DNA from: Candidatus Microsyncoccus archaeolyticus
Lineage (GTDB): Bacteria > Patescibacteriota > Minisyncoccia > Minisyncoccales > Minisyncoccaceae
Direction: 5' to 3'
DNA: 64,000 bases
Assembly (NCBI GenBank): GCA_036987155.1
Contig: BTXY01000003.1
Coordinates: 28,098-92,097 of the forward strand
Positions 2,320-56,225 of this stretch are shown here, one piece after another. The notes below the pieces were generated by a model, which ran no database searches, had not been told where the DNA came from, and saw nothing but the letters and a program-made list of their open reading frames with translations. Each line of letters begins with the position of its first letter. Position 1 is the stretch's first letter. Both the position numbers and the translations under genes were made by a program.

Positions 2320-2348
2320 TTGACAAAATCTTTTACATAATATATAAT
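2320..2348 (+). promoter_or_regulatory. sigma70-like promoter TTGACA-17nt-TATAAT; ATG 10 nt after the -10
   Basis: TTGACA 2320-2325, 17-nt spacer, TATAAT 2343-2348. Start codon of the antitoxin gene is at 2359. Confidence 0.65.
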
Positions 2349-2358
2349 GGTTTAAAAT

Positions 2359-3141
2359 ATGCTTTCAAACTTTATTAAACAATTAAGAGAAAAGAACAAT
2401 TTTAGTCAAGAATATATGGCTTCTAAAATTGGGATATCTAGACCAACATATGCTCAGATAGAATTGGGAAAAAGAGATCTAACCGTTATTGAGGCAAAAA
2501 TAATATCAGATATTTTTGGAATGTCTTTAAATGATTTTTTGCAAGAAAAAAAGTTGTTGGTTGATTTTCAGATTAAAAAATCAAAGAATAAAAATAAAAA
2601 GAAAAAAGAAGACATCAGAATAAGCATTCCTCAAGAAAAGATTGACAAATTCAAACAAGTGTTACTATATATTTTGGAAAAAGCAGGAGGAAAGCCAAAT
2701 GTTGGAATGACGGTTTTGTATAAACTCCTTTATTTTATTGATTTTGATTATTATGAAAAAAATGAGGAACAATTGATGGGACTTGTCTATATAAAAAATC
2801 ATTATGGACCAACGCCAATTTTATTTGATAGGGTAATTAAAGAAATGAATAAAAAAGGAGAGATAGAGGTTTTAAAAAGTAAATTTTATCAACACCCCCA
2901 AACTAAATATTTATTAAATCCTTCTATAATACCAGATTTGAAAATCTTGAATGGTAAAGAAAAAGAACACATTGACTGGGAATTGCAAAGACTATCTAAT
3001 CTAACAGCCACGGCTCTCTCTGATTTATCTCATAAAGATGTTCCATGGATTAGTGCTCAAGAAGGAAGACCAATAGATTATGAGTCGGTTTTTTATAGAA
3101 CCAATGATACATCTGTACGAAATTATGGAGAAGAAGATTGA
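2359..3141 (+). CDS. Antitoxin-like protein: N-terminal XRE-family HTH fused to Panacea/DUF4065 (SocA/GepA-like) domain
   Basis: The N-terminus QLREKNNFSQEYMASKIGISRPTYAQIELGKRDL is an HTH_3 pattern. The C-terminal half LLYILEKAGGKPNVGMTVLYKLLYFIDFDYY...HYGPTP is DUF4065-like. Confidence 0.7.
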   Translation: MLSNFIKQLREKNNFSQEYMASKIGISRPTYAQIELGKRDLTVIEAKIISDIFGMSLNDFLQEKKLLVDFQIKKSKNKNKKKKEDIRISIPQEKIDKFKQVLLYILEKAGGKPNVGMTVLYKLLYFIDFDYYEKNEEQLMGLVYIKNHYGPTPILFDRVIKEMNKKGEIEVLKSKFYQHPQTKYLLNPSIIPDLKILNGKEKEHIDWELQRLSNLTATALSDLSHKDVPWISAQEGRPIDYESVFYRTNDTSVRNYGEED

Positions 3142-3529: not shown

Positions 3530-3558
3530 TTGACTAAATTAATTTTTTGGTTTATATT
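3530..3558 (+). promoter_or_regulatory. sigma70-like promoter TTGACT-17nt-TATATT; secD ATG 8 nt after the -10
   Basis: TTGACT 3530-3535, TATATT 3553-3558, ATG 3567. Confidence 0.55.
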
Positions 3559-3566
3559 TCAACAAT

Positions 3567-5027
3567 ATGACAAAAAAGCAGATAAACGTATCGTTTATAT
3601 TGATACTCCTTTTGGGAGTTGTTTCTGCTTGTTATTGTTTTCCTCAATATCCTAATATTTTAATTAATAATGCAAACAAAGCATATAGTTGGTCTATACC
3701 CCAAATACCAGACAACGGCTTTAAATTAGGACTAGATCTTAAGGGTGGGGTTCATTTAGAATATGAAGCTGATTTGACAGATATTCCAGAAGAAGAAAAA
3801 GAATCAGTAATGCAAGGATTAAGGGATTTGCTTGAAAGAAGAGTTAATACTTTTGGAGTTACTGAGTCGATTGTTCAAGTTTATGGTCAAGATAGAGTAG
3901 CTGTCGAGTTGCCAGGAGTAGAAAGCATTGAAAGTGCAATAGAATGGATTGGACAAACCCCATTATTGGAGTTTTGGGAAGAGTTGCCAGAAGAAGAAAT
4001 ACAAAAAATGAATGAGGTAAAACAAAAAGTATCTGAAGTTTACACTAACAATAAAGACAAAACCCAAGAAGAGATTCTTGCAGAAATACAGAAAATAGAT
4101 AATTGGATTTTGGCTTTTCAAAGTCCATATCAAAAAACAGAACTAACTGGTAGGTACTTAAAAAAAGCCACACTTGGCTATGATCAAATCACGTATGCTC
4201 CAATAGTTGAATTGCAATTCAATGACGAAGGGGCAAAAATATTTGAACAAGTAACAGAAAGAAATATTGGAAAAACTTTAGCCATATATTTAGATGGGGC
4301 ATCAATTATTGATACAAATGGTGATGGAAAAATTGATGGTAATGATTTATACGCTCCAAGAGTTAACGACAAAATAAGTGGGGGACAAGCAATGATTTCT
4401 GGGAATATGGATGTTAAGGAGGCAAAAACTTTAGTTCAAAGACTAAACCAAGGAGCTCTACCCGTTCCATTAGGGGAGCCAATAGCTCAGAAAAAAATAG
4501 GACCAACTTTAGGAGCAGTTTCTTTAACAAATGCAGTTAGAGCAGGAATGATAGGAGCAATAATGATAGTTGTTTTCTTGATTCTTTTTTATCGTTTGCC
4601 AGGTCTTTTAGCTGCAGTAGCATTATCTTTATATATTGTAATCTTACTTTCTTTAATGAAATTAGTACCAGTTACCTTAACTTTAGCTGGAATAGGCGGA
4701 TTTATTTTATCTATTGGTATGGCAGTTGATGCTAATATTTTAATATTTTCTAGAATGAGAGAAGAACTAAAACAAGGGAAAAGTGTTTTAACAAGTATTG
4801 AAGAAGGACTGAAAAGAGCTTGGCCATCTATTAGAGATGGAAACTTTACAACCCTTATTGTTGCTTTTGTTCTTTATTTTCTAGGAACAAGTTTTATTAA
4901 GGCATTTGCTTTTGCATTAATTTTAGGTATTTTTGTTAGCATGTTTTCAGCAGTTGTTGTTACAAATATTCTTCTTCAAATTTTTGCAAGAGGAAGATTA
5001 GAAAAGATAAGATTTATTTGGTCATAA
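3567..5027 (+). CDS. secD: Protein translocase subunit SecD
   Basis: LGLDLKGG, a periplasmic domain, and a C-terminal 6-TM block with GIGGFILSIGMAVDANILIFSRMREE. Confidence 0.9.
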   Translation: MTKKQINVSFILILLLGVVSACYCFPQYPNILINNANKAYSWSIPQIPDNGFKLGLDLKGGVHLEYEADLTDIPEEEKESVMQGLRDLLERRVNTFGVTESIVQVYGQDRVAVELPGVESIESAIEWIGQTPLLEFWEELPEEEIQKMNEVKQKVSEVYTNNKDKTQEEILAEIQKIDNWILAFQSPYQKTELTGRYLKKATLGYDQITYAPIVELQFNDEGAKIFEQVTERNIGKTLAIYLDGASIIDTNGDGKIDGNDLYAPRVNDKISGGQAMISGNMDVKEAKTLVQRLNQGALPVPLGEPIAQKKIGPTLGAVSLTNAVRAGMIGAIMIVVFLILFYRLPGLLAAVALSLYIVILLSLMKLVPVTLTLAGIGGFILSIGMAVDANILIFSRMREELKQGKSVLTSIEEGLKRAWPSIRDGNFTTLIVAFVLYFLGTSFIKAFAFALILGIFVSMFSAVVVTNILLQIFARGRLEKIRFIWS

Positions 5028-5939: not shown

Positions 5940-5968
5940 TTGACAAAAATCAAATAAAATGTTATAAA
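5940..5968 (+). promoter_or_regulatory. sigma70-like promoter TTGACA-17nt-TATAAA; ATG 9 nt after the -10
   Basis: TTGACA 5940-5945, TATAAA 5963-5968, ATG 5978. Confidence 0.55.
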
Positions 5969-8381: not shown

Positions 8382-10013
8382 ATGGAAAAAGAAACAATAA
8401 CATTTTTTGGCAAAACAACTTTTAGAGGAGAAAAAAAGAAATTTGGAATAAAAGACGATGACAAAAGACGTCATGTTTATATTATTGGTAAAACAGGAAT
8501 GGGTAAAACCGAATTATTAAAAAACATGGTTGTCCAGGATATTTTAAATGGAAAAGGAGTTGGTTTTATTGATCCTCACGGGGAAGCAGCAGAAGAGCTT
8601 TTAAGATTTGTCCCCAAAGAAAGAATAAAAGATGTTGTTTATTTTAATCCAGCTGATATTGAAAATCCAATTGCGTTTAATATTATGGAAGACGTGAGCG
8701 CTGAATACAGACACTTGATTGCTGGTGGATTAATGGGTGTTTTCAAAAAGATTTGGCCAGATGTTTGGTCATCGAGAATGGAATATATTTTAAATAATTC
8801 TATACTTGCTTTATTAGAGGTTCCAGGATCAACACTACTTGGAGTTAATAGACTTTTGTCTGATCCAGAATGGAGAGAAAAAGTAGTAAATCAAGTTAAA
8901 GATCCAATTGTTAAGTCTTTTTGGGTAAAAGAATTTGCTAGATATACTCAAAGATACGAAGTAGAAGCAACTGCAGCAATTCAAAACAAAATCGGTCAAT
9001 TTATTTCTACGCCCTTGATTAGAAATATTATTGGTCAAGAAAAATCAAGTATTGATATTAGACAAGTCATGGATAGCGAAAAGATTTTAATCATGAATCT
9101 TTCTAAGGGTAAGATAGGGGAAGATAATTCTAGACTATTAGGGGCACTTCTTGTGACAAAACTACAATTAGCTGCAATGTCTAGAGTAGACACTGCTGAA
9201 CAAGAGAGAAAAGATTTTGTATTATATATTGATGAATTTCAGAATTTTTCTACAGATTCTTTTGCTAACATTTTATCAGAAGCTAGAAAGTATCGTTTAT
9301 CTTTAATTTTAGCTCATCAATATATTGCTCAAATGGAAGAAAAGGTAAGAGATGCAGTTTTTGGAAACGTTGGGACAATGATTACTTTTAGAATCGGAGC
9401 TGATGATGCAGAGTTTTTAGAAAAAGAATTTTCTCCTGAATTTTTTATTGAAGACATGGTTAATCTTCCCAAGCAAAACATTATTGTTAAGTTAATGATT
9501 AACGGTGTTACCTCAAGGCCTTTTTCTGCTGAAACACTTCCTCCAGTGAAAAAGCAAGAAGAGTCTTTTGAAGATGAGATAGTAGGATTTTCTCAGAAAA
9601 AATACGGAAATGATAGATCTATTGTGGAAAAGAAAATTTCTGATGATTCAGGAATAGACTCTTTTATACCAATTATTAAAAAGAATAATAATATTGAGTT
9701 GCATGATGCAGTTTGTCAGAGTTGTGGTAAGAAATTTAAAGCACCATTTAAGCCAGACGGTAAAAGGCCTGTTTATTGTAAAACATGCTTAAAGAATAAA
9801 GAAGAATCTTCGAGTAGTTTCAATTCTTTACCAACAATTTCTTTAAAAGAATCAGCTAAAGATTTCGTACCACTGGTAAAGAAAAAAGAGGAAAGCATAA
9901 ATAAAAAAGAAATAGATTTGGTTGGGTTAAAAGAGGTTATCAAGAAAGCTAAACTAGAAACAAAAAAAGAAAAAGGAGTTATTCATCCAGGAGAAACTAT
10001 AAAGTTTGACTAA
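8382..10013 (+). CDS. TraD/TraG/VirD4-like (type IV coupling protein family) P-loop ATPase lacking TM segments, with C-terminal CxxC-x17-CxxC zinc ribbon
   Basis: Walker A YIIGKTGMGKT. Walker B plus TraG-D_C-like block LYIDEFQNFS...ARKYRLSLILAHQYIAQM. C-terminal CQSC-17aa-CKTC. Confidence 0.65.
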   Translation: MEKETITFFGKTTFRGEKKKFGIKDDDKRRHVYIIGKTGMGKTELLKNMVVQDILNGKGVGFIDPHGEAAEELLRFVPKERIKDVVYFNPADIENPIAFNIMEDVSAEYRHLIAGGLMGVFKKIWPDVWSSRMEYILNNSILALLEVPGSTLLGVNRLLSDPEWREKVVNQVKDPIVKSFWVKEFARYTQRYEVEATAAIQNKIGQFISTPLIRNIIGQEKSSIDIRQVMDSEKILIMNLSKGKIGEDNSRLLGALLVTKLQLAAMSRVDTAEQERKDFVLYIDEFQNFSTDSFANILSEARKYRLSLILAHQYIAQMEEKVRDAVFGNVGTMITFRIGADDAEFLEKEFSPEFFIEDMVNLPKQNIIVKLMINGVTSRPFSAETLPPVKKQEESFEDEIVGFSQKKYGNDRSIVEKKISDDSGIDSFIPIIKKNNNIELHDAVCQSCGKKFKAPFKPDGKRPVYCKTCLKNKEESSSSFNSLPTISLKESAKDFVPLVKKKEESINKKEIDLVGLKEVIKKAKLETKKEKGVIHPGETIKFD

Positions 10014-10040
10014 GACGATTTAATTGGATATCATTAATCA

Positions 10041-11204
10041 ATGAAAAGCATAAAAGATTTTGACATAAAAGGTAAAAGAGTTTTAGTAAGGTGTGATTTA
10101 AACGTTCCATTAGATGATAATGGAAAAGTAGCTGAAGATTTTAGAATAATTCAAATTTTACCTCTGCTTAATTATCTAAGAGAAAAAGGAGCAAGAATTG
10201 TTCTTATTAGCCATTTAGGAGACCCTAAGGGAATAAAGGATCCTAAATATTCTTTAAGACCAGTTGCAGAAAAACTATGGGAATTAATAGGTGGAGTTAA
10301 GTTCATAAACGAAGCAATTGGAACAAAAGTTGAATTACAGACAACTCTTTTGAAAGAAGGAGAAATTCTTTTATTAGAAAATTTAAGATTTTACAAAGAA
10401 GAGGAAAATAATGATTTAGAGTTTGCCCAAAAACTTTCTAATTTAGGAGATTTTTTTATTCAAGAAGGATTTGGAGTTTGCCATAGAAACCACGCTTCTG
10501 TAGTAAGTGTTCCTAAATTTTTAATTAGTTTTCCAGGATTTTTAGTAAAAAAAGAAATAGATGTTTTGTCTTGGCTTATGACCACCCCTGAAAGACCTTT
10601 TGTTTCAATAGTTGGTGGCGCCAAGATTTTAACAAAAACAAGGGTTATAGAAAAACTTGTTAATAAATCGGATCATGTTCTAGTTGGAGGGAAAATTGCA
10701 AATTCGATTTTAACTGTAAAGGGGATTTGCGTAAGAGATCGATGGACAGAAGAGGAGCTTAAATTAAAAGAAGATCTAGAAACATTAAATTTAACTAGTC
10801 CGAAACTTCATTTACCAATTGATGGAGTAATTTCTTTATCTTCTCTTGATGAAAATTATTTAAGAATAGGAGGAGTGGGAACATTAAGAAAAGACGAAGA
10901 CATTTTTGATATAGGTCCAGAAACAGTAGAAAAGTATAAAGCTATAATTTCTACAGCTAAAACAGTAATATGGAACGGACCGCTTGGATTTTATGAAAAA
11001 GAAGAGTTTCAAGAAGGGACAATGGGAATTATGAATGCTATGATTAACCAAGAAGCTTTTACTGTTGCTGGTGGTGGAGAGACAACAGAGATAATAATTA
11101 GAGAAGGATTAAATGATAAATTTGATCATTTATCATCAGGGGGAGGTGCAATGCTTGATTATATTGCTGAAGGTAATTTGCCAGGACTAAAAGTTTTAGA
11201 ATAA
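10041..11204 (+). CDS. pgk: Phosphoglycerate kinase
   Basis: KRVLVRCDLNVP, SHLGDPKG, NGPLGFYE and GGGETT motifs. Confidence 0.95.
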   Translation: MKSIKDFDIKGKRVLVRCDLNVPLDDNGKVAEDFRIIQILPLLNYLREKGARIVLISHLGDPKGIKDPKYSLRPVAEKLWELIGGVKFINEAIGTKVELQTTLLKEGEILLLENLRFYKEEENNDLEFAQKLSNLGDFFIQEGFGVCHRNHASVVSVPKFLISFPGFLVKKEIDVLSWLMTTPERPFVSIVGGAKILTKTRVIEKLVNKSDHVLVGGKIANSILTVKGICVRDRWTEEELKLKEDLETLNLTSPKLHLPIDGVISLSSLDENYLRIGGVGTLRKDEDIFDIGPETVEKYKAIISTAKTVIWNGPLGFYEKEEFQEGTMGIMNAMINQEAFTVAGGGETTEIIIREGLNDKFDHLSSGGGAMLDYIAEGNLPGLKVLE

Positions 11205-12351: not shown

Positions 12352-12360
12352 AAAGAGCCT

Positions 12361-12504
12361 TTAATCGTTTTCGATTATTGGCTCAGATGGGTTTTGCGCT
12401 TTCTTAAAAGCGCGATGTGATGCTTCAATCTTTGCTTCCATTTCTTGCTCGTGGTCAGCATCAATTAAGATGCGACCGTCAAATTTTCTTTCAGCCTGTT
12501 TCAT
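12361..12504 (-). CDS. Small hypothetical protein (47 aa), not in the ORF track
   Basis: Minus-strand ATG at 12504..12502 gives MKQAERKFDGRILIDADHEQEMEAKIEASHRAFKKAQNPSEPIIEND, with the stop at 12363..12361. The region is locally GC-richer. It is preceded by a consensus promoter. Confidence 0.35.
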   Translation of the reverse strand: MKQAERKFDGRILIDADHEQEMEAKIEASHRAFKKAQNPSEPIIEND

Positions 12505-12521
12505 GTTAAATACCTATAAAT

Positions 12522-12550
12522 ATTATAACAAATAATTAAATAATTGTCAA
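12522..12550 (-). promoter_or_regulatory. Minus-strand consensus promoter TTGACA-17nt-TATAAT
   Basis: Reverse complement reads TTGACA (12550..12545), a 17-nt spacer, then TATAAT (12527..12522). The -35 abuts the rnhA ATG on the opposite strand. Confidence 0.55.
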
Positions 12551-12551
12551 T

Positions 12552-13025: not shown

Positions 13026-13034
13026 TTTTCTTTA

Positions 13035-13367
13035 CCTTAATAAACCCATAAGCCGAATTCTGTTTTAGGTGATTATCTATCTAAGGCCAAAGATCTCTCT
13101 TTGGCTCAAGCGAACTACTTTTTCTCTTATACAAGAGTTTGTTCTTGCTGCCAACAAGAATTTAGCCGTTTCACCTTTGGAATTACTTCCAAACTAATCC
13201 TTTTTAAGGGGATTCCTTAATTATTTCTAATTAAAGCGTCTCTGTTCGCATCTCTATCAAGATTTCTCTTGACGGTGGGCATTACCCACTGCTTTTTAGA
13301 CCTTAAATCAGGAATGGCAGTTCGGACTTTCCTCTCCAAATTGGAGCAATCACCCGGTTTATTAAGG
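13035..13367 (-). ncRNA. rnpB: RNase P RNA (bacterial type A-like)
   Basis: The reverse complement contains GAGAGGAAAGUCCGAAC (P4 5' strand), GGUGAAACGGC and ACAGAAUUCGGCUUAU (P4 3' strand). Terminal P1 pairing is CCUUAAUAAACC / GGUUUAUUAAGG. Confidence 0.9.
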
Positions 13368-13373
13368 CAATTA

Positions 13374-13402
13374 ATTTTAACTAATATGTATCAATGTGTC
13401 AA
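13374..13402 (-). promoter_or_regulatory. Minus-strand promoter TTGACA-17nt-TAAAAT placed to start transcription at the rnpB 5' end
   Basis: Reverse complement reads TTGACA (13402..13397) and TAAAAT (13379..13374). There are 6 nt between the -10 and the first P1 nucleotide. Confidence 0.6.
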
Positions 13403-13444
13403 GGTTTGAAAATTGATGGTTATTGTGAGATAATAAACAATAAA

Positions 13445-17364: not shown

Positions 17365-17393
17365 TTGCGTCTTTGATTATTTTTTGATATAAT
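17365..17393 (+). promoter_or_regulatory. Promoter TTGCGT-17nt-TATAAT; prfB ATG 7 nt after the -10
   Basis: TATAAT 17388-17393, ATG 17401. Confidence 0.45.
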
Positions 17394-17400
17394 TTTAAAC

Positions 17401-18478
17401 ATGGAAAAAGAAAAGCAATTAGAAGAATTATTTTCTAGAGTCCTCTCATTAGAGGACCGGCTTTGACTTAGATAATATTGAAAAGAAGAAAAAAGAGCTT
17501 AAAGAAAAAACAGAAAAATCTGATTTTTGGGACGACAATGTTAAAGCAGCAAAAATAAGTCAGGAGCTATCAGAGATAGAAGAAGAATTAGAATGGTTTA
17601 AGGAAACTAAAAAAGATTTAAAGGATATAGAAGAATTGCTTTCTTTAATTGAAAATGATGAAGAACTGGAAGAAAAAATAGACAATTTGAGTAGAAGAAT
17701 AAAGAAGAAAGAGCAGGAAGCATATTTTAATGATAAGCACGACAAAGGAAATGCAATTCTTAGTATTTTTTCAGGAGCAGGAGGACAGGACGCAGAAGAC
17801 TGGGCAGCTATGCTCTTAAGAATGTATAATAGGTATTGCGAAAGAAAGGGATTCAAAGTAATAGTGATAGACGAATCTTTGGGAGAAGAAGGAGACGAGA
17901 GGAAAGGAATAAAATCAGTAATATTTGAGATTAAGGGTAAATATGCATACGGCCTTTTAAAAAAAGAAACAGGAGTGCATAGATTAGTTAGAATTTCTCC
18001 ATTTTCAGCACAAAAACTTAGGCATACATCGTTTGCTTTAGTGGAAGTGTTACCTGAAATTACTGATAATAAAGAAATAGAAGTTAAAGAAGAGGATGTC
18101 AGAGTAGATTATTATAGAGCATCGGGTCCAGGAGGTCAGTACGTTAATAAAAGAGACTCAGCAGTGAGAATAACCCATGTCCCGACTGGAATTGTTGTGT
18201 CTTGTCAGTCAGAGAGACTACAAGGAAAAAACAAAGAAAAAGCAATAAGTGTTTTAATGAGTAAGTTGTATGCTTTTGAAAAAGAAAAACAAGAAAAAGA
18301 GTTGTCAAAAATAAAAGGGGATAAAGTTTCAGCAAGTTGGGGAAATCAAATCCGTTCGTATGTATTGCACCCATATAAACTAGTTAAAGATTTAAGAACC
18401 AATATTGAATCAACTCAGCCAGATAAAGTTTTAGATGGAGAATTGGATGAGTTTATAGAAGAAGAAATTAAATTATGA
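17401..18478 (+). CDS. prfB: Peptide chain release factor 2, requires programmed +1 frameshift (join 17401..17463, 17465..18478)
   Basis: Frame 0 encodes MEKEKQLEELFSRVLSLEDRL and then hits TGA within CTT TGA C. The +1 frame continues DLDNIEKKK... into the 17636 ORF. SPF and GGQ motifs are present. Confidence 0.9.
17452..17467 (+). promoter_or_regulatory. RF2 autoregulatory +1 frameshift site (GAGGACCGG CTT TGA C)
   Basis: CUU UGA C slippery/stop context at 17461-17467, identical to the canonical prfB site. Confidence 0.85.
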
Positions 18479-38067: not shown

Positions 38068-38409
38068 TTAATTTGTTTCTGCTTCTTTGATAAGTTTTGA
38101 TGCATCATTAATGAGCATCATAATAAACCTTTCTCTATCTTGAGGGGAGAAATATCCATCAAGTATGATTTTTTTGCTTCCATCAGGGGATAGCTCTTGA
38201 TGAATGTCGTTCACAATCTGACCCATCTGGCTGTACCAGGCAAGGGGCATTTTTTGTGTACATATTTTTCCCTCAACAAAGTCTAAAATTTCTTTTAGCA
38301 CCCTGTAGTGATAAAGAGAAGGATCTTCGATAGAGGCTTTGTGAGTTACCTCTGGCCTAATGGAATCAATGCTTGATTCCATTTTTTTGATAGCGATTCC
38401 AACGTACAA
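38068..38409 (-). CDS. Hypothetical protein (start uncertain: TTG 38409 or ATG 38382)
   Basis: Minus-strand ORF. The upstream part of the 136-aa track ORF overlaps prfA and was trimmed. Confidence 0.45.
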   Translation of the reverse strand: MYVGIAIKKMESSIDSIRPEVTHKASIEDPSLYHYRVLKEILDFVEGKICTQKMPLAWYSQMGQIVNDIHQELSPDGSKKIILDGYFSPQDRERFIMMLINDASKLIKEAETN

Positions 38410-38449
38410 TTTAATCACCTCTAATATAATAATATAAATTATAGATTTG

Positions 38450-39187
38450 TCAAGATTGAACTTTCCCCATGGCGCCAATCATTTTTTCTATTCTGCCATC
38501 CATTATTGATTCAATATCGTGCCAGCTTTTATTAATTCTGTGGTCAGTAACTCTATCTTGAGGGAAATTATACGTCCTTATTTTTTCTTCTCTTCCAGCG
38601 CTACCGATTTGAGATCTTCTTGCTCCACCCAATTCTTTTTCTAGTTCTTTTTCTTTTTGTTCTAATAATCTTGCAGCTAAAATAGCTAAAGCGTTTTCTT
38701 TATTTTGTTGTAAGCTTCTTTCTGATTGAGAGGTAACAGCCATATTAGTAGGAATATGAACAATTCTAATAGCTGTCATTCTTTTATTAATATATTGTCC
38801 TCCTGCTCCAGAAGCTTTACATGTTTCTGTTCTAATATCTTGAGGCCTAATATCTATTTGGGTTTTTGATGGCTTAGGAAGTACAGCTACTGTTGCAGTG
38901 GAGGTATGAATTCTCCCGGATTTTTCTGTTTTTGGTATTCTTTGAACCCTATGAACACCTGCTTCATATTTGAATTTTTCATAAACATTATCACCATCTA
39001 TTTCAATAATCACACTTTTTATGCCATTAATATCTGTTTGATTAATATCTAATACTTGAGTCTTTAATCCTTGATTTTGAGCATAACGAGAATACATTCT
39101 TAAAAGGTCATTAGCAAAAAGAGCGGCTTCTTCTCCGCCTACTCCAGCTCTAATCTCCATGATTACAGCATTAAACTTCTGTTCCAT
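38450..39187 (-). CDS. prfA: Peptide chain release factor 1, N-terminally truncated form (domains 2-4 only)
   Basis: Begins at the equivalent of E. coli RF1 residue ~105-110 (NAVIMEIRAGVGGEEAALFANDLLRMYSRYA). PKT tripeptide at the P(A/x)T position, and the GGQ motif. The rpmE stop is 2 nt upstream, which leaves no room for domain 1. Confidence 0.85.
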   Translation of the reverse strand: MEQKFNAVIMEIRAGVGGEEAALFANDLLRMYSRYAQNQGLKTQVLDINQTDINGIKSVIIEIDGDNVYEKFKYEAGVHRVQRIPKTEKSGRIHTSTATVAVLPKPSKTQIDIRPQDIRTETCKASGAGGQYINKRMTAIRIVHIPTNMAVTSQSERSLQQNKENALAILAARLLEQKEKELEKELGGARRSQIGSAGREEKIRTYNFPQDRVTDHRINKSWHDIESIMDGRIEKMIGAMGKVQS

Positions 39188-39396: not shown

Positions 39397-39455
39397 ATTG
39401 GAATTATACTATCAGAAAACTATTTTTTAATCAAGAGGTGTGTTATAATAAAAAA

Positions 39456-40039: not shown

Positions 40040-40068
40040 TTGTCATTAATTTTTAATTATGCTATATA
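40040..40068 (+). promoter_or_regulatory. Promoter TTGTCA-17nt-TATATA upstream of rpsB (42-nt leader with small TCGCT/AGCGA hairpin)
   Basis: TTGTCA 40040-40045, TATATA 40063-40068. Confidence 0.5.
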
Positions 40069-40110
40069 CATAGTATATTTATTAACTCGCTTTTAAGCGA
40101 TATTTCAATT

Positions 40111-40806
40111 ATGGACACAGAAACAGCAAAAACACAATATGGTATTTTGATAGACGACATGATTAAAGCTGGTCTTGGTTTTGGTCATCAAAAATCAAAA
40201 CTTCATCCTAAAATGAAGGATTATACTGCAAAGATTAAAGATAAAGTATATTTAATCGATTTAGAAAAAACAGCAATAAAATTAGCAGAAAGTTTGGATT
40301 TGTTAAAATCATTAAAACAAGAAGGCAAAGGAATCATTTTTGTGGGAACAAAAGTTGCTACAAGAAAACTAATAGAAGAAATAGCTAAGAGTTCCAAAGC
40401 GTATTATGTTAATGAAAGATGGATAGGGGGAACATTTACTAATTTTAAAGAAATAAGGAAAAGAATAAATTATTGGAAGGAATTAGAGAACAGAACAAAA
40501 GATCCTGATTACGAAAAGAAATATGTTAAGAAAGAAAGATTAACTATTCAAAAAGAAATAGACAGAATGAAAATGAAATTCGAAGGAATAAAAGACATGG
40601 AAGAATTGCCTGGTGCTCTAGTTGTTTTAAGCGCTGACAAAGAAAGTATTGCTGTAAAAGAAGCTAAAAAATCTGGAATTAAAGTAATTGGAGTAGTAGA
40701 CACTAATACTGATCCTACGCCAATAGATTATGTTATTCCAGCTAATGACGATGCTTTTACCTCAATCGAATATATATTGTATAAAATGCAAGAAGTATTA
40801 AAATAA
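40111..40806 (+). CDS. rpsB: 30S ribosomal protein S2
   Basis: AGLGFGHQKSKLHPKM, WIGGTFTNF, VVDTNTDP. Confidence 0.95.
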   Translation: MDTETAKTQYGILIDDMIKAGLGFGHQKSKLHPKMKDYTAKIKDKVYLIDLEKTAIKLAESLDLLKSLKQEGKGIIFVGTKVATRKLIEEIAKSSKAYYVNERWIGGTFTNFKEIRKRINYWKELENRTKDPDYEKKYVKKERLTIQKEIDRMKMKFEGIKDMEELPGALVVLSADKESIAVKEAKKSGIKVIGVVDTNTDPTPIDYVIPANDDAFTSIEYILYKMQEVLK

Positions 40807-41405: not shown

Positions 41406-41760
41406 TCTTATTCTACAAATAACTTTTCTTTTAAGTTTTGCTGGGGTTGTTGGTTTTGCTTTAAGGAAGAGTCCTCAAGTAGCACAGCTTCCCGAGAAGG
41501 AATGTTTTTATTCAAGAATTGTTAATAATTCAAAAGAAAATTTTCTTGAAGTAAAAAATAACTTAAAAAAGAAAACAGAAAATTGGGAGAATTCATTGCA
41601 CAAATTTCTTTTCAAAACAAGAATTTTATTTTTAAAAGCAGATAACAAAACATTAGATTTAATTAAGAAATTAAAGCAGCGATCAGAGAAAAGAAAGGGA
41701 GACGATGGATATTGGAAAGATATTAAAAAATCAATTAAGAAGAAAAATAAGCCGGCATAG
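41386..41760 (+). CDS. Hypothetical small membrane protein with lysine-rich tail; stop TAG lies inside tRNA-Thr
   Basis: One TM helix (ILQITFLLSFAGVVGFAL). The start is uncertain (ATG 41386 or 41395). Confidence 0.45.
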   Translation: MQDMNSDLILQITFLLSFAGVVGFALRKSPQVAQLPEKECFYSRIVNNSKENFLEVKNNLKKKTENWENSLHKFLFKTRILFLKADNKTLDLIKKLKQRSEKRKGDDGYWKDIKKSIKKKNKPA

Positions 41761-41822
41761 CTCAGTGGTAGAGCAACTGTTTTGTAAACAGTAGGTCGGG
41801 GGTTCGAATCCGTCTGCCGGCT
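41751..41822 (+). tRNA. tRNA-Thr (anticodon UGU)
   Basis: Acceptor GCCGGCA/TGCCGGC, D-arm GCTC-AGTGGTA-GAGC, anticodon arm ACTGT-TTTGTAA-ACAGT, T-loop TTCGAAT. Confidence 0.85.
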
Positions 41823-41833
41823 CACGATGTGTA

Positions 41834-41862
41834 TTGACAATTATAAAGAAGCAGAGTAAGAT
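41834..41862 (+). promoter_or_regulatory. Candidate rrs promoter TTGACA-17nt-TAAGAT
   Basis: TTGACA 41834-41839, TAAGAT 41857-41862, about 70 nt upstream of the 16S. Confidence 0.5.
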
Positions 41863-41904
41863 GTTTTTACTTGAAAGATCCTTGAAATTTTATTGTAGGT
41901 TTTT

Positions 41905-41921
41905 TAGAGTTGTTTCGTAAA
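41905..41921 (+). repeat. 5' half of the pre-16S processing stem (TAGAGTTGTTTCGTAAA)
   Basis: Perfect reverse complement of 43494..43510. Confidence 0.8.
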
Positions 41922-41932
41922 TTTTTATTTTT

Positions 41933-43409
<1,477 letters not shown>

Positions 43410-43426
43410 ATTTTTAGTTTGTCGGC

Positions 43427-43463
43427 AAGAATTAATTCGCGAGTGATCACTGAATTAATTCTT
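43427..43463 (+). repeat. Spacer hairpin: 12-bp perfect inverted repeat AAGAATTAATTC / GAATTAATTCTT
   Basis: Arms 43427-43438 and 43452-43463, 13-nt loop. Confidence 0.6.
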
Positions 43464-43493
43464 AAGTGTTGGTCTTGTCACTTTAAAAAGACC

Positions 43494-43510
43494 TTTACGA
43501 AACAACTCTA
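43494..43510 (+). repeat. 3' half of the pre-16S processing stem (TTTACGAAACAACTCTA)
   Basis: Perfect reverse complement of 41905..41921. Confidence 0.8.
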
Positions 43511-43523
43511 AGAGACTTATACT

Positions 43524-44096
43524 ATGATATTCTACTCCCTTTTTAAAGGGTTATACAAAAGAGCAGCCCGGAAAATGATTAAGGACTGCGAAGGTTTTAT
43601 TAGAAACAATTCAGAATTATTAGATTTTGGCTGTGGTTCAGGAATAGTTGCCAGTGAATTTGAAAAACATTTTAATTTAAAAATTAAAGGAGTAGACATT
43701 ATAGACAATAGGGTTGAAAATATTTCTTTTGAGTTGTATAATGGCAAAGACCTTTCTTTTTTTAATGATAATAGCTTTGACACGGTTTTAGTAAGTTATG
43801 TTTTACATCACACCAAAAACCCTTTAGAACTTTTTAAAGAAATTAAAAGAGTAAGCAAAGATATAGTTATTATTTATGAGAGTCCTTGTGATGGATTGTT
43901 TTACAGGATAATGTGTTCAATACATGGAATATCATTTGCAAAATATTTTCAGAAAAACAAAAATAAAGGAAAGTTTTTCACAACAAAAGAATGGAAAAAA
44001 ATATTTAAAGAAAATGGGTTTAATGTCGTTAAAGAGAAAATAGTTGGATATTTTCCTTTAAAGAACACGCTTTTCATTTTAAAGAAGGGTGTGTAG
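43524..44096 (+). CDS. Class I SAM-dependent methyltransferase (Methyltransf_11-like) embedded between 16S and tRNA-Ile
   Basis: LLDFGCGSGIVA (motif I), GVDIIDN, FDTVLVSYVLHH. The stop TAG lies inside tRNA-Ile. Confidence 0.75.
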   Translation: MIFYSLFKGLYKRAARKMIKDCEGFIRNNSELLDFGCGSGIVASEFEKHFNLKIKGVDIIDNRVENISFELYNGKDLSFFNDNSFDTVLVSYVLHHTKNPLELFKEIKRVSKDIVIIYESPCDGLFYRIMCSIHGISFAKYFQKNKNKGKFFTTKEWKKIFKENGFNVVKEKIVGYFPLKNTLFILKKGV

Positions 44097-44160
44097 CTCA
44101 GCTGGTTAGAGCGCGTCACTGATAATGACGAGGTCCCTGGTTCAAGTCCAGGCATACCCA
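44087..44160 (+). tRNA. tRNA-Ile (anticodon GAU)
   Basis: Acceptor GGGTGTG/CATACCC, anticodon arm CGTCA-CTGATAA-TGACG, T-arm CCTGG-TTCAAGT-CCAGG. Confidence 0.9.
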
Positions 44161-44168
44161 CAGTATAT

Positions 44169-44241
44169 GGGCCCATGGCGCAGTTGGTAGCGCGCCTCTT
44201 TTGCAAAGAGGAGGTCAGGAGTTCGAATCTCCTTGGGTCCA
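44169..44241 (+). tRNA. tRNA-Ala (anticodon UGC)
   Basis: Acceptor GGGCCCA/TGGGTCC with the G3:U70 identity pair, anticodon arm CCTCT-TTTGCAA-AGAGG. Confidence 0.9.
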
Positions 44242-44246
44242 CAAAA

Positions 44247-44270
44247 AACCTTCCATAAACGGAAGGTTTT
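44247..44270 (+). terminator. Rho-independent terminator AACCTTCC-ATAAAC-GGAAGGTT + TT
   Basis: 8-bp perfect stem immediately after tRNA-Ala. Confidence 0.75.
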
Positions 44271-44327
44271 ATATTTGTAAACATATTTGATATAATAATA
44301 TTGATAACAATAAATTATAATAAAAAC

Positions 44328-45155
44328 ATGAATAATAGAATTTTGTTAATTATTTTAATTTTTATTTTTATATCTACTGGTTTTGTTATTGCAGCAAATA
44401 ATAGTGGAGCTCAATCTTCGCAACAGCAAACATCTAATCAAGGAGAGGGGAATCAAATTCAAAACAATGAGAATAATCCTGGCAATGGTGTCCAAGAACA
44501 AAATCAAGTTCAAACTCAAGAACAATTACAAGATGGAAGTGGAGACAATAACCAAGAACAAAATCAAGAGCAGTCTGGTAATGGAAATGGTTCTCAAAAT
44601 CAACAACAAACATCTAATCAAGGAGAGGGGAATCAAATTCAAAATAATGAGAATAATCCTGGTAATGGCGCTCAAGAACAAAATCAAGTTCAAACTCAAG
44701 AACAACAAGGAACACAAAGTCAAAATGGTTTAAATAATGCTGAACAAAGAAGGAGTCAAGTAGCTAATGCTGTTCAAGAAATGCTTCAAGTAGCTGATAG
44801 AGCTGGTGGAATTGGAGAGCAAGTAAGAGTAATTGCTCAAGCTCAAAATCAAAACCAGGAACAGATAGAGCAAAGCCTAGAAAAGGTTCAAAAAAGAAAT
44901 ACTTTTGTTAAATTTTTAATTGGACCCAACTATGGAGAAATTAAGAATACAGAAAGATTATTAGAACAAAACCAAGAAAGAGTTAACCAATTAAATCAGA
45001 TTCAAAATCAACTCATTAATCAGGCAGATCAGCAAGCTTTAATGGAGCAGGTTCAAGTTTTAGAGCAAGCAAATTTAGCAATCCAAAACTCTCTCAATGC
45101 TGCTCAAAAAGGATTTAGTTTGTTTGGGTGGATGTTTAGACTATTTTCAAGATAA
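44328..45155 (+). CDS. Secreted Gln/Asn-rich repeat protein with C-terminal coiled-coil-like region
   Basis: Signal peptide MNNRILLIILIFIFISTGFVIA. The 35-aa unit QQQTSNQGEGNQIQNNENNPGNG.QEQNQVQTQEQ occurs twice. Trimmed to ATG 44328. Confidence 0.6.
   Translation: MNNRILLIILIFIFISTGFVIAANNSGAQSSQQQTSNQGEGNQIQNNENNPGNGVQEQNQVQTQEQLQDGSGDNNQEQNQEQSGNGNGSQNQQQTSNQGEGNQIQNNENNPGNGAQEQNQVQTQEQQGTQSQNGLNNAEQRRSQVANAVQEMLQVADRAGGIGEQVRVIAQAQNQNQEQIEQSLEKVQKRNTFVKFLIGPNYGEIKNTERLLEQNQERVNQLNQIQNQLINQADQQALMEQVQVLEQANLAIQNSLNAAQKGFSLFGWMFRLFSR
44421..44526 (+). repeat. Copy 1 of a ~106-bp intragenic direct repeat
   Basis: Near-identical to 44601..44706, offset exactly 180 bp (60 codons). Confidence 0.85.
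44601..44706 (+). repeat. Copy 2 of a ~106-bp intragenic direct repeat
   Basis: A handful of substitutions relative to copy 1. Confidence 0.85.
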
Positions 45156-45246: not shown

Positions 45247-45672
45247 TTGGTTGAAAGAAAAAAGTATTTAGAGATTATTAAAGCTGATTATATTGGAGAT
45301 ATCAGCACATATGGAGATATTGTTATTAACCAAGGGGTTTTTGTTAGGGGTAGCGTGTTTGCTGCTTCTGGCAGTATTTTCATAGAGCCTGGAGCGGTTA
45401 TCCAGGGTAGAGTTGAAGCTGGTATCAACATATATATTGGCAAGAAGGCCGAAATTATTGGTCAAGTAAAGGCATTTCATGTTGAAAACAGAGGAGAGAT
45501 AAAAGGAGACGTGAATAACGTTAATTTCTTCAGAAGTTTTGGAGGGAAAAGCACAGGGGAAATTGAAGCAACGCACGTTCTCATAGGAGAATACGGTATC
45601 CATAATGGGCCAATAATTTCAATGTGTACAAAAATTGATGATCAAGGAAGACATTTTAAAGATGGCGCTTAA
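45247..45672 (+). CDS. Bactofilin-like (beta-helical repeat) protein; start uncertain
   Basis: The track ORF begins upstream of the terminator, so it was trimmed to TTG 45247. Repetitive G.V/I.G pattern: GDIVINQGVFVRGSVFAASGSIFIEPGAVIQGRVEAGINIYIGKKAEIIGQV. Confidence 0.45.
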   Translation: MVERKKYLEIIKADYIGDISTYGDIVINQGVFVRGSVFAASGSIFIEPGAVIQGRVEAGINIYIGKKAEIIGQVKAFHVENRGEIKGDVNNVNFFRSFGGKSTGEIEATHVLIGEYGIHNGPIISMCTKIDDQGRHFKDGA

Positions 45673-45688
45673 GCGTCATTGTTTTTTT
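45662..45688 (+). terminator. Hairpin ATGGCGC-TTAA-GCGTCAT spanning the stop codon + T-run
   Basis: 7-bp stem (one G:U) followed by TGTTTTTTT. Confidence 0.55.
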
Positions 45689-45714
45689 ATTTTTTTGTAG
45701 TATAATTTCATTAT

Positions 45715-46760: not shown

Positions 46761-47438
46761 ATGGTAGACTGGACAGGTATAACTATTCTCGCATTGCAAC
46801 AAGCATGGGAGAGTATTATAGGGTTCTTGCCATTACTTTTAGGAGCTTTTATTATCTTCATCATTGGATGGGTAGTCTCTATTTGGATTGGAAAATTGGT
46901 AGCAGGAGTTTTAAGTGCACTAAAATTTGATAAGATATTCGAGGGTGGTGGATGGAGAGAAGCTTTTGAAAAAGCAGAAATTAAAGTATCTCCATCAGAT
47001 TTTATCGGAGCAATAGTTAAATGGATTTTGATTGTAGTATTCTTGATTGTTGCTGCTGATATATTAGGTTGGGTAGCATTTGCTTCGATATTAGCAAAAC
47101 TATTAGCTTGGATACCTAATTTAATAGTGTCTATTGCTATTTTTGTTGTTGCTGTGGTTGTTGCAGATATTTTAGGCAAAATGGTTAAAGCTTCAGTTAA
47201 GAAAATGGGAGTAAGCTTGACTAATTTTGTTGGATCAGCTGTAAAATGGTCAATATATGTTTTTGCAATTTTTGCAATATTGTTACAACTAGGAATTGCT
47301 GCTCCGATTGTTAACACCTTGGTTACTGGTTTTGTTGCAACACTTACAATAGCTTTTGGTTTAGCATTTGGTTTAGGAGGAAAAGAAGCTGCTGCCAGAG
47401 TAATTGAAGAAGCAAAAAACAAGCTTTCTGACAAATAA
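46761..47438 (+). CDS. Membrane protein with repeated conserved-TM-helix motif (MscS-associated type)
   Basis: Repeated hydrophobic helices with a K-rich loop. Flanked by a downstream terminator in + orientation. The antisense 231-aa ORF is judged a shadow ORF. Confidence 0.5.
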   Translation: MVDWTGITILALQQAWESIIGFLPLLLGAFIIFIIGWVVSIWIGKLVAGVLSALKFDKIFEGGGWREAFEKAEIKVSPSDFIGAIVKWILIVVFLIVAADILGWVAFASILAKLLAWIPNLIVSIAIFVVAVVVADILGKMVKASVKKMGVSLTNFVGSAVKWSIYVFAIFAILLQLGIAAPIVNTLVTGFVATLTIAFGLAFGLGGKEAAARVIEEAKNKLSDK

Positions 47439-47450
47439 TTTATACTTTAA

Positions 47451-47478
47451 ACACGCCTCTTTATGGGGTGTGTTTTTT
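47451..47478 (+). terminator. Rho-independent terminator ACACGCC-loop-GGTGTGT + TTTTT
   Basis: 7-bp stem and a T-run. Confidence 0.6.
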
Positions 47479-47480
47479 GT

Positions 47481-47509
47481 TTGACCGTTTCTGTATTTTC
47501 TAGTATATT
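47481..47509 (+). promoter_or_regulatory. Promoter TTGACC-17nt-TATATT; alaS ATG 6 nt after the -10
   Basis: TTGACC 47481-47486, TATATT 47504-47509, ATG 47516. Confidence 0.55.
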
Positions 47510-47515
47510 TAGAAT

Positions 47516-49309
47516 ATGACATCCGAAGAATTAAGGAAAAACTTCTTAGATTTTTTTAAAAAAAGAGGGCACATTGTAGTTCCTTCTTCTTCTCTTTTGC
47601 CGAGCGATAAAACAGTATTGTTTACTACTGCTGGAATGCAGCAGTTTTCTTTGTATTTAGCTGGAGAAAAAGATCCAGTTAAAGATTTTGGTTCAAGACA
47701 TTTAACTTCTTCTCAAAAATGCTTTAGAACTGATGATATTGAAGAAGTAGGAGACGATACCCATCATACTTTTTTCGAAATGCTTGGAAATTGGTCTATT
47801 GGACAAGATGATAAAGGATATTTTAAAGAAGGAGCAATTAAATACGCTTTAGAGTTTTTAGAGGAGTTGGGTTTGGATAAAAATAGACTGTATATTACTG
47901 TTTTTAAAGGAGAAGGGAATATTCCTAAAGATAAAGAAGCAATTGATTTATGGATTAAGAATGGGATTCCTGCTGAGAGAATAAGAGAATATGAAAAAAA
48001 AGATAATTTTTGGGGACCAGTTGGAGAAACAGGTCCTTGCGGGCCATGTTCAGAGTTGCATTATGATAGAGGAGAAAAATATGGCTGTGGTGGAGCTAAT
48101 TGCGGACCCAATTGTGATAATTGCAAAAGATTTGTTGAAATATGGAATTTGGTTTTTATGCAATACTTTAAAAACGACAAAGGGGAATATGAGCTACTTT
48201 CTCAAACAAACATTGATACTGGAATTGGTTTTGAAAGATTAGTTTCTTTGCTTCAAGAAAAGAATTCTAGCTATGAAACAGATTTATTTAAAGACGTAAT
48301 ATCTAAGATTGAAGAAGAGTCTAATAAAAAATATGAGGATAATAAAAAAGAGTTTAGGGTTATTGCTGATCACTCAAGAGCAATAGTATTTTTAACCAGT
48401 GAGGGGATTATTCCTTCTAATGTTTCTCAAGGATATGTTTTAAGAAGATTAATTAGAAGATCAATTAGGTATTCTAAATTAATAGGTTTTAATTTTGATC
48501 AATTTTATTTTTTATTAGATATTATTGTAGATAAGTATAAAGATATATATCCTGAGGTTGTAAATAAGAAATACAATATTATTAAGGAAGAAGAAGAAAA
48601 GTTTGCAAAAACAATAGAAAAAGGATTATTAATGATTGAAAAATTAATTACAGAGAAAAAAGACAGGACCATAACTGGAGAAGAAGCTTTTGACTTGTAC
48701 CAAAGCTATGGTTTCCCTTTAGAATTAGTTGAAGAAATTGCCAACGAGAAAGATTTTCTTGTTGATAAAAGTGGTTTCAATGAAGCTTTAAAAAAACATC
48801 AGGATGTTTCTAGAGAGGGAATGGAAAAGAAATTTGGAGGTGTAGGTAAAGATTCAGGAGAGATGGGAGTAAAATATCATACCTTAACTCATTTATTGCA
48901 CGCTGCCTTAAGAAAAGTATTAGGGGATCACGTTAAGCAAATGGGTTCAGACATTAACTCTGAGCGCTTAAGGTTTGATTTTGCTCATGGTATTAAAATG
49001 ACAGAAGAAGAAATCAAGAAAGTAGAAGATTTAGTTAATGAAAAAATTAAAGAAGGACTAATTGTTGAAAAACAAGAGATGTCCCTTGATAAAGCGATAA
49101 ATGATGGGGCATTAGCGTTTTTTAAAGATAAATACGGAGAAATGGTTTTTGTTTGGACAATTTTTAATCCCCAAACAAAAGAGGTTTTTTCTAAAGAAGT
49201 TTGTGGGGGTCCTCATGTCGAGACCTTGAAAGATTTAGGAATATTTAAGATAATAAAAGAAGAAAGTTCAAGTGCAGGAGTTAGAAGAATAAAAGCAATA
49301 TTAAAATGA
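47516..49309 (+). CDS. alaS: Alanine--tRNA ligase, short form (catalytic + tRNA-recognition + editing domains; no C-Ala domain)
   Basis: FTTAGMQQF, FFEMLGNWS, WGPVGETGPCGPCSE, editing-site HTLTHLLHAAL and CGGPHV. Confidence 0.9.
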   Translation: MTSEELRKNFLDFFKKRGHIVVPSSSLLPSDKTVLFTTAGMQQFSLYLAGEKDPVKDFGSRHLTSSQKCFRTDDIEEVGDDTHHTFFEMLGNWSIGQDDKGYFKEGAIKYALEFLEELGLDKNRLYITVFKGEGNIPKDKEAIDLWIKNGIPAERIREYEKKDNFWGPVGETGPCGPCSELHYDRGEKYGCGGANCGPNCDNCKRFVEIWNLVFMQYFKNDKGEYELLSQTNIDTGIGFERLVSLLQEKNSSYETDLFKDVISKIEEESNKKYEDNKKEFRVIADHSRAIVFLTSEGIIPSNVSQGYVLRRLIRRSIRYSKLIGFNFDQFYFLLDIIVDKYKDIYPEVVNKKYNIIKEEEEKFAKTIEKGLLMIEKLITEKKDRTITGEEAFDLYQSYGFPLELVEEIANEKDFLVDKSGFNEALKKHQDVSREGMEKKFGGVGKDSGEMGVKYHTLTHLLHAALRKVLGDHVKQMGSDINSERLRFDFAHGIKMTEEEIKKVEDLVNEKIKEGLIVEKQEMSLDKAINDGALAFFKDKYGEMVFVWTIFNPQTKEVFSKEVCGGPHVETLKDLGIFKIIKEESSSAGVRRIKAILK

Positions 49310-50555: not shown

Positions 50556-50584
50556 TTGACCAAAATCAAAAATTCTGATAATGT
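50556..50584 (+). promoter_or_regulatory. Candidate promoter TTGACC-17nt-TAATGT upstream of infA
   Basis: TTGACC 50556-50561, TAATGT 50579-50584. Confidence 0.4.
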
Positions 50585-50606
50585 TTTATTATCTCAAAAT
50601 TAAACA

Positions 50607-50828
50607 ATGAAAAATGACGATAAAATAAAGAAAGAGGGGACAGTAACAGAAAGTCTTCCAGATGGTTTTTTTAGAGTTAAGCTTGATGATGAAGATTTTG
50701 AAGTTTTAGCTCACTTGGCCGGAAAATTAAGGATATACAAGATTAAAATCCTAGCTGGAGATAGGGTTACTGTTGAAATGACTCCTTATGATAAAAAAAG
50801 AGGGAGAATCATTTTTAGAAAGAAATAA
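50607..50828 (+). CDS. infA: Translation initiation factor IF-1
   Basis: [19 protein letters not shown]...[10 protein letters not shown]...I..GD.V.VEMTPYD..RGRI. Confidence 0.95.
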
Positions 50829-56196: not shown

Positions 56197-56225
56197 TTGC
56201 CAATTTGGATTTTATTGGCTAGAAT
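56197..56225 (+). promoter_or_regulatory. Promoter TTGCCA-17nt-TAGAAT; mreB ATG 7 nt after the -10
   Basis: TTGCCA 56197-56202, TAGAAT 56220-56225, ATG 56233. Confidence 0.55.

Follow-up and report, generated by a model that had tools for sequence, protein, structure and literature searches.

Promoters placed 6-10 nucleotides before start codons point to leaderless mRNAs in a Parcubacteria relative whose 16S rRNA lacks the anti-Shine-Dalgarno sequence

A Pribnow box lying 6-8 nucleotides (nt) from the start codon is the computational mark of bacterial leaderless genes in GeneMarkS-2 group C, which accounts for 25-50% of operons and is found mainly in Actinobacteria and Deinococcus-Thermus (PMC6028130); the same -10/start distance underlies the "TA-led" genes of Zheng et al. 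2011, who report few leaderless genes in Bacteroidetes/Chlorobi (1/37 genomes; PMC3160421). Ribosomes that lack the anti-Shine-Dalgarno (anti-SD) sequence have a literature of their own, in which the earlier surveys stress Bacteroidetes, Mycoplasma and endosymbionts (PMC6107228), and Tsurumaki et al. 2022 describe a Parcubacteria subgroup without the motif, reporting the rRNA loss only and no mRNA-side analysis (PMC9297842). How ribosomes without an anti-SD choose their start codons is only partly understood, and the published Parcubacteria work ends at the rRNA loss. Lim 2012 is another reference for lineages lacking or not using the anti-SD (Flavobacteriia/Bacteroidetes, insect endosymbionts). 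Here we analyse 64,000 nt of Candidatus Microsyncoccus archaeolyticus (contig BTXY01000003.1, positions 28,098 to 92,097; hereafter the window), in which sigma70-type -35/-10 pairs lie immediately before the start codons of 11 genes, that of alanyl-tRNA synthetase (AlaRS, alaS) among them. These are probably real promoters, set so that the mRNAs are leaderless or nearly so, with predicted 5' untranslated regions (5'UTRs) of 0-4 nt.

The sites are listed below; the gap is the number of nt between the -10 and the ATG, and scores in bits are those of the position weight matrix (PWM) described further on.

2320..2361, plus strand: promoter of an HTH / Panacea-domain antitoxin-like gene; TTGACA-17-TATAAT, gap 10, ATG 2359; 13.7 bits, the window's best
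3530..3569, plus strand: secD promoter; TTGACT-17-TATATT, gap 8, ATG 3567; 10.8 bits
5940..5980, plus strand: promoter of a Sigma70_r4 / HARE-HTH protein gene; TTGACA-17-TGtTATAAA, gap 9, ATG 5978
10006..10043, plus strand: pgk promoter; TTGACT-17-TATCAT, gap 6, ATG 10041; 11.5 bits
13406..13447, plus strand: murJ promoter; TTGAAA-17-TGaGATAAT, gap 10, ATG 13445, the likely true start; 8.3 bits
17365..17403, plus strand: prfB promoter; TTGCGT-17-TGaTATAAT, gap 7, ATG 17401; 9.3 bits
29185..29223, plus strand: promoter of an ATP-grasp_5 protein gene; TTGTCT-18-TGaTATAAT, gap 6, ATG 29221; 8.9 bits
39394..39434, minus strand: rpmE (L31) promoter; TTGATT 39434..39429, 17 nt, TGaTAGTAT 39411..39406 (gap 9), ATG 39396; 7.1 bits
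45679..45717, plus strand: TerC/DUF475 (terC) promoter; weak -35 TTGTTT, 16-nt spacer, TATAAT 45701-45706, gap 8, ATG 45715; 5.9 bits
47481..47518, plus strand: alaS promoter and start; TTGACC 47481-47486, 17 nt, TATATT 47504-47509, gap 6, ATG 47516; 12.1 bits
56197..56235, plus strand: mreB promoter; TTGCCA-17-TAGAAT, gap 7, ATG 56233; 12.4 bits

Eight of these had been named in a preliminary description of the window, and all eight are found where it placed them and with the 6-10 nt gaps it gave; its label "near-consensus" is fair for six, generous for the promoter at 17365 (whose -35 matches 3/6) and generous for that of 45715, with its weak -35. Three members, pgk (10041), murJ (13445) and rpmE (39396, minus strand), are new. 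The gaps of the 11 genes are 6, 6, 6, 6/9, 7, 7, 8, 8, 9, 10 and 10, the double value belonging to rpmE, where a second, overlapping TATAAT at 39408..39403 (minus strand) has a gap of 6, and the start codon is ATG in 11/11. At alaS the gap reads tagaat and transcription is predicted to begin on the A of ATG 47516; the gene at 2359 has a predicted 5'UTR of ~3-4 nt. The -10 is extended (TGn) at 17401, 29221 and 5978, which helps to make up for weak -35 boxes, the prfB promoter begins 3 nt past a tRNA-Thr, and the -35 of pgk overlaps the stop codon of the preceding gene. Such a layout is found at about 11/25 transcription units (~40-45%), or roughly 16% of the genes.

The window shows the sequence layout of leaderless genes, with a -10 (TANNNT) ~6-8 (to ~10) nt from the start, at operon-first genes only, with AUG starts and no Shine-Dalgarno (SD) motif. 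The group C and TA-led phyla are alike in having a -10 near the start of the operon-first gene in 25-50% of operons, AUG as start codon, and a leadered class beside the leaderless one (PMC6028130, PMC3160421). They differ in that their other genes use a canonical SD and their 16S rRNA keeps the anti-SD, and in usually having a bare TANNNT -10 with a weak -35 in GC-rich genomes, whereas here both hexamers come close to that of E. coli at 30% GC and there is no SD system. What we describe is not a new mechanism but a way of starting genes known from other bacteria; what sets it apart is that an AT-rich genome combines near-consensus -35 and -10 boxes with a high leaderless share and has no SD system for its other genes. 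Full-text literature searches found no paper tying leaderless mRNAs to Patescibacteria, Saccharibacteria or the Candidate Phyla Radiation (CPR).

The position of the strongest matches was measured with a sigma70-type PWM (E. coli-like -35/-10 frequencies, with a penalty on the spacer), on which at least 8.5 bits marks the top 0.06% of positions. At that threshold a match at gaps 6-10 precedes 7/63 plus-strand starts (3, 2, 1, 0 and 1 at gaps 6, 7, 8, 9 and 10), and only 3 lie at gaps 11-60; the expectation at gaps 6-10 from 1091 non-start ATGs is 0.06. The preliminary description had suggested plotting the distance from -10 to ATG, and within the window this check gives a sharp peak of strong pairs with its mode at gap 6. 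The distribution of gaps is bimodal, at 6-10 nt and then at 17 nt or more. At gap 5-10, a promoter scoring 8.5 bits or more precedes 7/25 operon-first genes. When the 60-nt upstream regions of these 25 genes were shuffled with dinucleotides preserved (n=2000), the shuffles gave 0.10, 0.22 and 0.64 matches at thresholds of 8.5, 7.5 and 6 bits, with maxima of 2, 3 and 5, compared with 7, 9 and 10 observed. Of the ten best plus-strand PWM matches in the 64 kb, five have an annotated ATG 6-10 nt beyond their end, and the others in the top ten include rRNA promoters upstream of 16S.

All matches of at least 8.5 bits at gaps 6-10 belong to operon-first genes, with an intergenic gap, a terminator or a tRNA upstream, and no -35/-10 signal was found at tightly coupled internal operon genes. 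The same PWM places the promoter of RNase P RNA 8 nt before the RNA 5' end and also finds the rRNA promoters, so the consensus it embodies applies in this host. Terminators lie directly upstream of two members: one at 45661-45680 immediately precedes the terC promoter, and the T-tail of the other extends into the -35 of alaS.

13374..13402, minus strand: RNase P RNA promoter, a positive control for the geometry; TTGACA-17-TAAAAT ends 8 nt before the RNA 5' end (13365)
47449..47475, plus strand: intrinsic terminator of a mechanosensitive-channel-like gene (46761-47438); 11-pair stem and T run, from the terminator scan

These observations bear on the view that the TATAAT-like element, as in GeneMarkS-2 group B (Bacteroidetes), is a ribosome-binding or enhancer signal that is A/U-rich and needs no SD, the genes being read from longer transcripts. 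A host without SD and anti-SD, in which the sequence before starts is rich in A/T and poor in G, with A at -3, would suit such a signal, and pgk could be reached by read-through from its upstream gene. We nevertheless regard this as unlikely, because a TTGACA-like box at a distance of 17+-1 nt has no role in translation, because the signal is missing from internal operon genes and two members have terminators directly upstream, and because the hexamers are conserved where spacers have diverged. In group B the same short-distance motif precedes first and internal genes alike; here the internal genes share only the generic A/T-rich context and the A at -3.

The start codons, too, appear to be correctly placed. 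The gene at 47516 is alaS by its matches to Pfam tRNA-synt_2c and tRNA_SAD, and its N-terminus, MTSEELRKNFLDFF, is a canonical AlaRS start; the N-terminus of release factor 2 (RF2, prfB) is canonical as well. Orthologs begin at the same residue. Pfam alignments start no further than 1-6 residues from the proposed methionine in PGK (profile 1-377 aligned to residues 4-376), MreB (3-325 to residues 2-325), ATP-grasp_5 and HTH_3 (from residue 6 of the 2359 gene), and in most short-gap members the ATG is the earliest possible start of the open reading frame (ORF). Promoters that are real but followed by mis-assigned starts, so that a downstream ATG is used and the mRNAs are leadered, might be suspected given that the starts are inferred and that two of them had to be moved (13394 to 13445 for murJ, and 44301 to 44328); set against the agreement of profiles, N-termini and ortholog starts, we think this very unlikely. 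The longer murJ ORF was rejected because a start at 13394 falls within the divergent RNase P promoter: the murJ and minus-strand RNase P RNA promoters stand back-to-back (window 13033-13445) with their -35 boxes 3 nt apart. Likewise rejected was the TTG at 44301 as a leaderless start (gap 4), since ATG 44328, with a gap of 31 nt, opens a signal-peptide-like N-terminus. The in-frame TTG at 56197 is the mreB -35 box and not a start codon.

The preliminary description had also stated that the anti-SD is missing, and the 16S rRNA bears this out. The gene (41930-43409) aligns to the whole Rfam small-subunit (SSU) model (positions 1-1533), and its 3' end is GGAUCAAUUAUUUU in place of GGAUCACCUCCUU, with no CCUCC.

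43395..43409, plus strand: 16S rRNA 3' tail; reads GGATCAATTATTTT, anti-Shine-Dalgarno CCTCC absent

A 16S 3' end is present in only the window and one other among 162 loci, that of the closest relative (L003), whose tail is GGATCATTTATTTT, ending GGAUCAUUUAUUUU and likewise without CCUCC(U); the loss is therefore a property of the lineage. The window has ~30% GC, nearly all of its genes lie on the plus strand, and its nearest AlaRS matches are from Ca. Paceibacterota (71% identity), Ca. Nealsonbacteria (63%) and Minisyncoccales (63%), which suggest that the host is a small-genome relative of the Parcubacteria (CPR/Patescibacteria); an identical AlaRS is also present in a metagenome assembly (GCA_030154545.1; run DRR381268). 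The likeness to the Parcubacteria of Tsurumaki et al. is in the 16S tail without CCUCC and in these nearest relatives, Paceibacterota, Nealsonbacteria and Minisyncoccales; the difference is that "leaderless" never occurs in that paper, whereas here the mRNA-side architecture of one such organism is laid out.

The rRNA locus (41751-44270) is itself unusual in its order of tRNA-Thr, 16S, a methyltransferase gene, tRNA-Ile, tRNA-Ala, a terminator (44245-44270) and then protein genes, with no 23S downstream within it. The inserted gene (43524-44096) encodes a 190-aa SAM-methyltransferase, and the insertion is kept in L003.

On the mRNA side, GGAG or GAGG at -20..-5 precedes 0/61 starts, compared with 5.7+-2.3 at random positions, and G makes up only 4-6% of positions -8..-1. 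Outside the short-gap set the context is Kozak-like: 71% of starts have A at -3 and 63% have T at -1. No hybridisation minimum is seen upstream of starts with either the canonical anti-SD or the host's AU-rich tail, and duplex energies with the canonical anti-SD are positive at -12..-6, which amounts to avoidance. One might suppose a compensatory, non-canonical SD/anti-SD pair formed through the new AU-rich 16S tail, leaderless starts being incidental, as AAAAUAAU-like strings, which are common before ATGs, would be potential partners for the tail AUUAUUUU. Against this highly improbable arrangement, the energies of duplexes between the host's own tail and upstream regions are no better than those of scrambled tails at any position, and the tail differs between the window and L003. 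Variant pairing with the AU-rich tail was rejected on these scrambled-tail energies and on the avoidance of the canonical anti-SD. In Flavobacteriia/Bacteroidetes and insect endosymbionts there is likewise no SD enrichment, and upstream sequence is A-rich and G-poor (Amin 2018, PMC6107228); in contrast to the promoter-type signal seen here at operon-first genes only, their mRNAs are described as leadered, a non-SD motif preceding all genes.

The promoter layout is kept at orthologs in several relatives. At alaS the succession of terminator, -35, 17 nt, -10, 6-7 nt and ATG is retained with diverged spacers in L003, L083 and L005 (gap 6) and in L084 (gap 7), and the hairpin of the upstream terminator has the same position in L003 and L083. 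The mreB orthologs have TTGCCA-17-TACAAT at a gap of 8 in L003 and 7 in L083. In start-agnostic gap histograms, from a crude scan, the 6-8 nt peak appears in the contigs of relatives as in the window: close genome relatives have 6 matches at gaps 5-10 compared with 9 at gaps 11-60, and metagenome relatives 6 compared with 13.

The reading given in the preliminary description, that these mRNAs are leaderless, predicts the restriction to operon-first genes, the mode at gap 6, the ATG starts, the upstream terminators, the conservation, and the absence of SD and anti-SD, and all of these are as predicted; the 5' ends themselves are predicted ones. Several observations weigh on the other side. Two members are weak: the -10 of the 5978 gene (TATAAA) ends in A and not in the near-invariant T, and 45715 (terC), the weakest of the set, has a poor -35. 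Gaps of 9-10 nt give predicted 5'UTRs of 3-4 nt, not a strictly 5'-terminal AUG, and since the preceding gene ends within the pgk promoter, read-through transcripts that carry a "leader" before pgk probably exist as well. The alaS layout is not kept in L004 or in more distant relatives, and at the 5978 ortholog of L004 the promoter is retained, TGtTATAAA included, with a gap of 23 nt; from these two cases we take the layout to be evolutionarily labile and switchable between leaderless and leadered forms. Finally, loose promoter-like matches show no enrichment relative to shuffles (63 vs 55.5, 86 vs 76.8). This last result is the one that would favour chance co-occurrence in an AT-rich, tightly packed genome, with sites picked by eye; yet an unbiased PWM scan set against two nulls gives a 30- to 100-fold excess at gaps 6-10, and the layout is conserved at the alaS and mreB orthologs, so that chance seems to us barely credible. 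The total of consensus promoters, which shuffles equal, was dropped as evidence, position relative to the ATG alone being informative; with loose totals at shuffle level, the signal is therefore where the strongest matches sit and not how many there are.

A second class of first genes has longer leaders, for which infA and rpsB serve as comparators.

50556..50609, plus strand: infA promoter and start; TTGACC-17-TGaTAATGT, gap 22, ATG 50607; predicted 5'UTR ~16 nt
40040..40113 (approximate), plus strand: rpsB promoter and start; TTGTCA-17-TATATA, gap ~42 nt, ATG 40111

The infA promoter and leader are kept in L003 and L004, and the rpsB leader (~36 nt) holds a conserved hairpin (tcgcttttaagcga), kept together with the promoter in the L003 ortholog. 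Because these two leaders are conserved beside the short-gap genes, two initiation classes coexist, as the preliminary description had surmised. Longer promoter gaps are also seen at 35541 (26 nt), 44328 (31 nt), 20267 (67 nt), 46761 (80-94 nt) and a minus-strand ORF of 47 aa (17 nt).

That ORF (12504..12361, minus strand; MKQAERKFDGRILIDADHEQEM...) is unannotated and lies 17 nt past the one promoter of the window that matches the consensus at 12/12 positions and also has the TG (TTGACA-17-TGtTATAAT, 12550..12522, minus strand), which faces a 200-nt "intergenic" gap; an Rfam search of the gap (12352-12551) for a small RNA gave nothing credible. Two conserved promoters have a -10 ending in A, that of the 5978 gene (TATAAA, 5963-5968) and that of rpsB (TATATA, ~40063-40068); the first is kept in L004 and the second in L003, and the 5978 element is preceded by TGn.

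We envisage that RNA polymerase would begin transcription ~7 nt past the -10, at the A of the AUG where the gap is 6 and 1-4 nt upstream of it where the gap is 7-10. A 5'-terminal AUG could then be captured directly by the 70S ribosome, or by the 30S subunit with initiation factor 2 (IF2) and fMet-tRNA, without 16S pairing. Downstream cistrons, mostly spaced at -4 to +8 nt, may be translated by termination-reinitiation or by 70S scanning; most internal genes do stand -4 to +8 nt from the preceding stop, which fits reinitiation. The second class of first genes (infA, rpsB, 35541, 44328, 20267) would use unstructured, A/U-rich, G-poor leaders with A at -3. The short-gap genes must be expressed, since they include the essential housekeeping genes alaS, pgk, prfB, mreB, secD, murJ and rpmE; by what route they are translated we infer. 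The window so offers, for one organism, an mRNA-side answer to the question of start choice without an anti-SD: promoter-adjacent AUGs for first cistrons, tight coupling for the rest, and a few conserved leaders.

Among described systems, the mRNA of phage lambda cI from PRM is alike in that its 5'-terminal AUG is translated by the 70S ribosome, the single-gene paradigm (PMC10491246), and unlike in being an isolated case in an otherwise SD-dependent organism. Haloferax volcanii resembles our window in that most transcripts are leaderless and the leadered ones have no SD (PMC3986360); it differs in having TATA/BRE elements ~26 nt upstream and archaeal initiation factors, where here the promoter is of the bacterial sigma70 type.

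The preliminary description held that the layout fits the missing anti-SD. Both SD and anti-SD are indeed absent from this host; the causal link is weaker than was implied, because the signature is also present in other CPR loci and, as a weaker peak, in non-CPR loci. The same crude scan finds it in loci of Saccharibacteria, Uhrbacteria and Microgenomates: other CPR loci have 25 matches at gaps 5-10 vs 78 at gaps 11-60, and non-CPR loci 32 vs 147. SD-like motifs precede 7% of ORFs in the sampled CPR loci (L007-L078, Saccharibacteria and Uhrbacteria included) vs 29% in non-CPR loci, by a crude survey of first-ATG ORFs, which hints that weak use of the SD may be general in CPR, beyond the subgroup without an anti-SD. 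By these crude proxies, every CPR locus sampled seems to share both the low SD use and the leaderless signature.

We also raise a wider picture, as something possible rather than probable: that this lineage, and possibly much of CPR, has a fully SD-independent regime in which de novo initiation occurs mainly at 5'-terminal AUGs (~45% of transcription units), reinitiation across junctions of -4 to +8 nt serves nearly all other cistrons, and a few conserved A/U-rich leaders (infA, rpsB) work by another route. If so, it would be the bacterial counterpart of the haloarchaeal regime and would explain how loss of the anti-SD was tolerated, its leaderless share of ~45% would lie close to the upper end of the reported bacterial range, and start calls in thousands of CPR metagenome-assembled genomes (MAGs) should use a leaderless model. 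Gene callers that assume a ribosome-binding site will misplace starts such as mreB (TTG 56197, which is the -35 box) and murJ (13394 vs 13445). The hypothesis is open to testing across thousands of existing CPR genomes and metatranscriptomes.

Some genes of the window have features of their own. AlaRS of E. coli has ~875 residues; that of the window (47516-49309) has only 597, and its C-terminal domain appears to be missing. Short forms dominate its matches, which come from CPR, Spirochaetes, Clostridia and DPANN-labelled MAGs. The prfB gene (17401-18478) is read via the classic programmed +1 frameshift, for which codon 22 provides the site CTT TGA C (~17458-17467). In E. coli the prfB frameshift is stimulated by an SD-like element that pairs with the anti-SD; here the site is preceded by tagaGGAccgg in a host whose 16S rRNA has no anti-SD. 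Downstream of rpmE, a class-I release factor gene (38450-39187, minus strand) encodes only 245 aa, in which a Pfam PCRF match covering profile positions 100-194 is followed by the RF-1 domain; the product thus seems to lack its N-terminal domain. A 136-aa ORF (38068-38478) overlaps the end of this short release factor gene.

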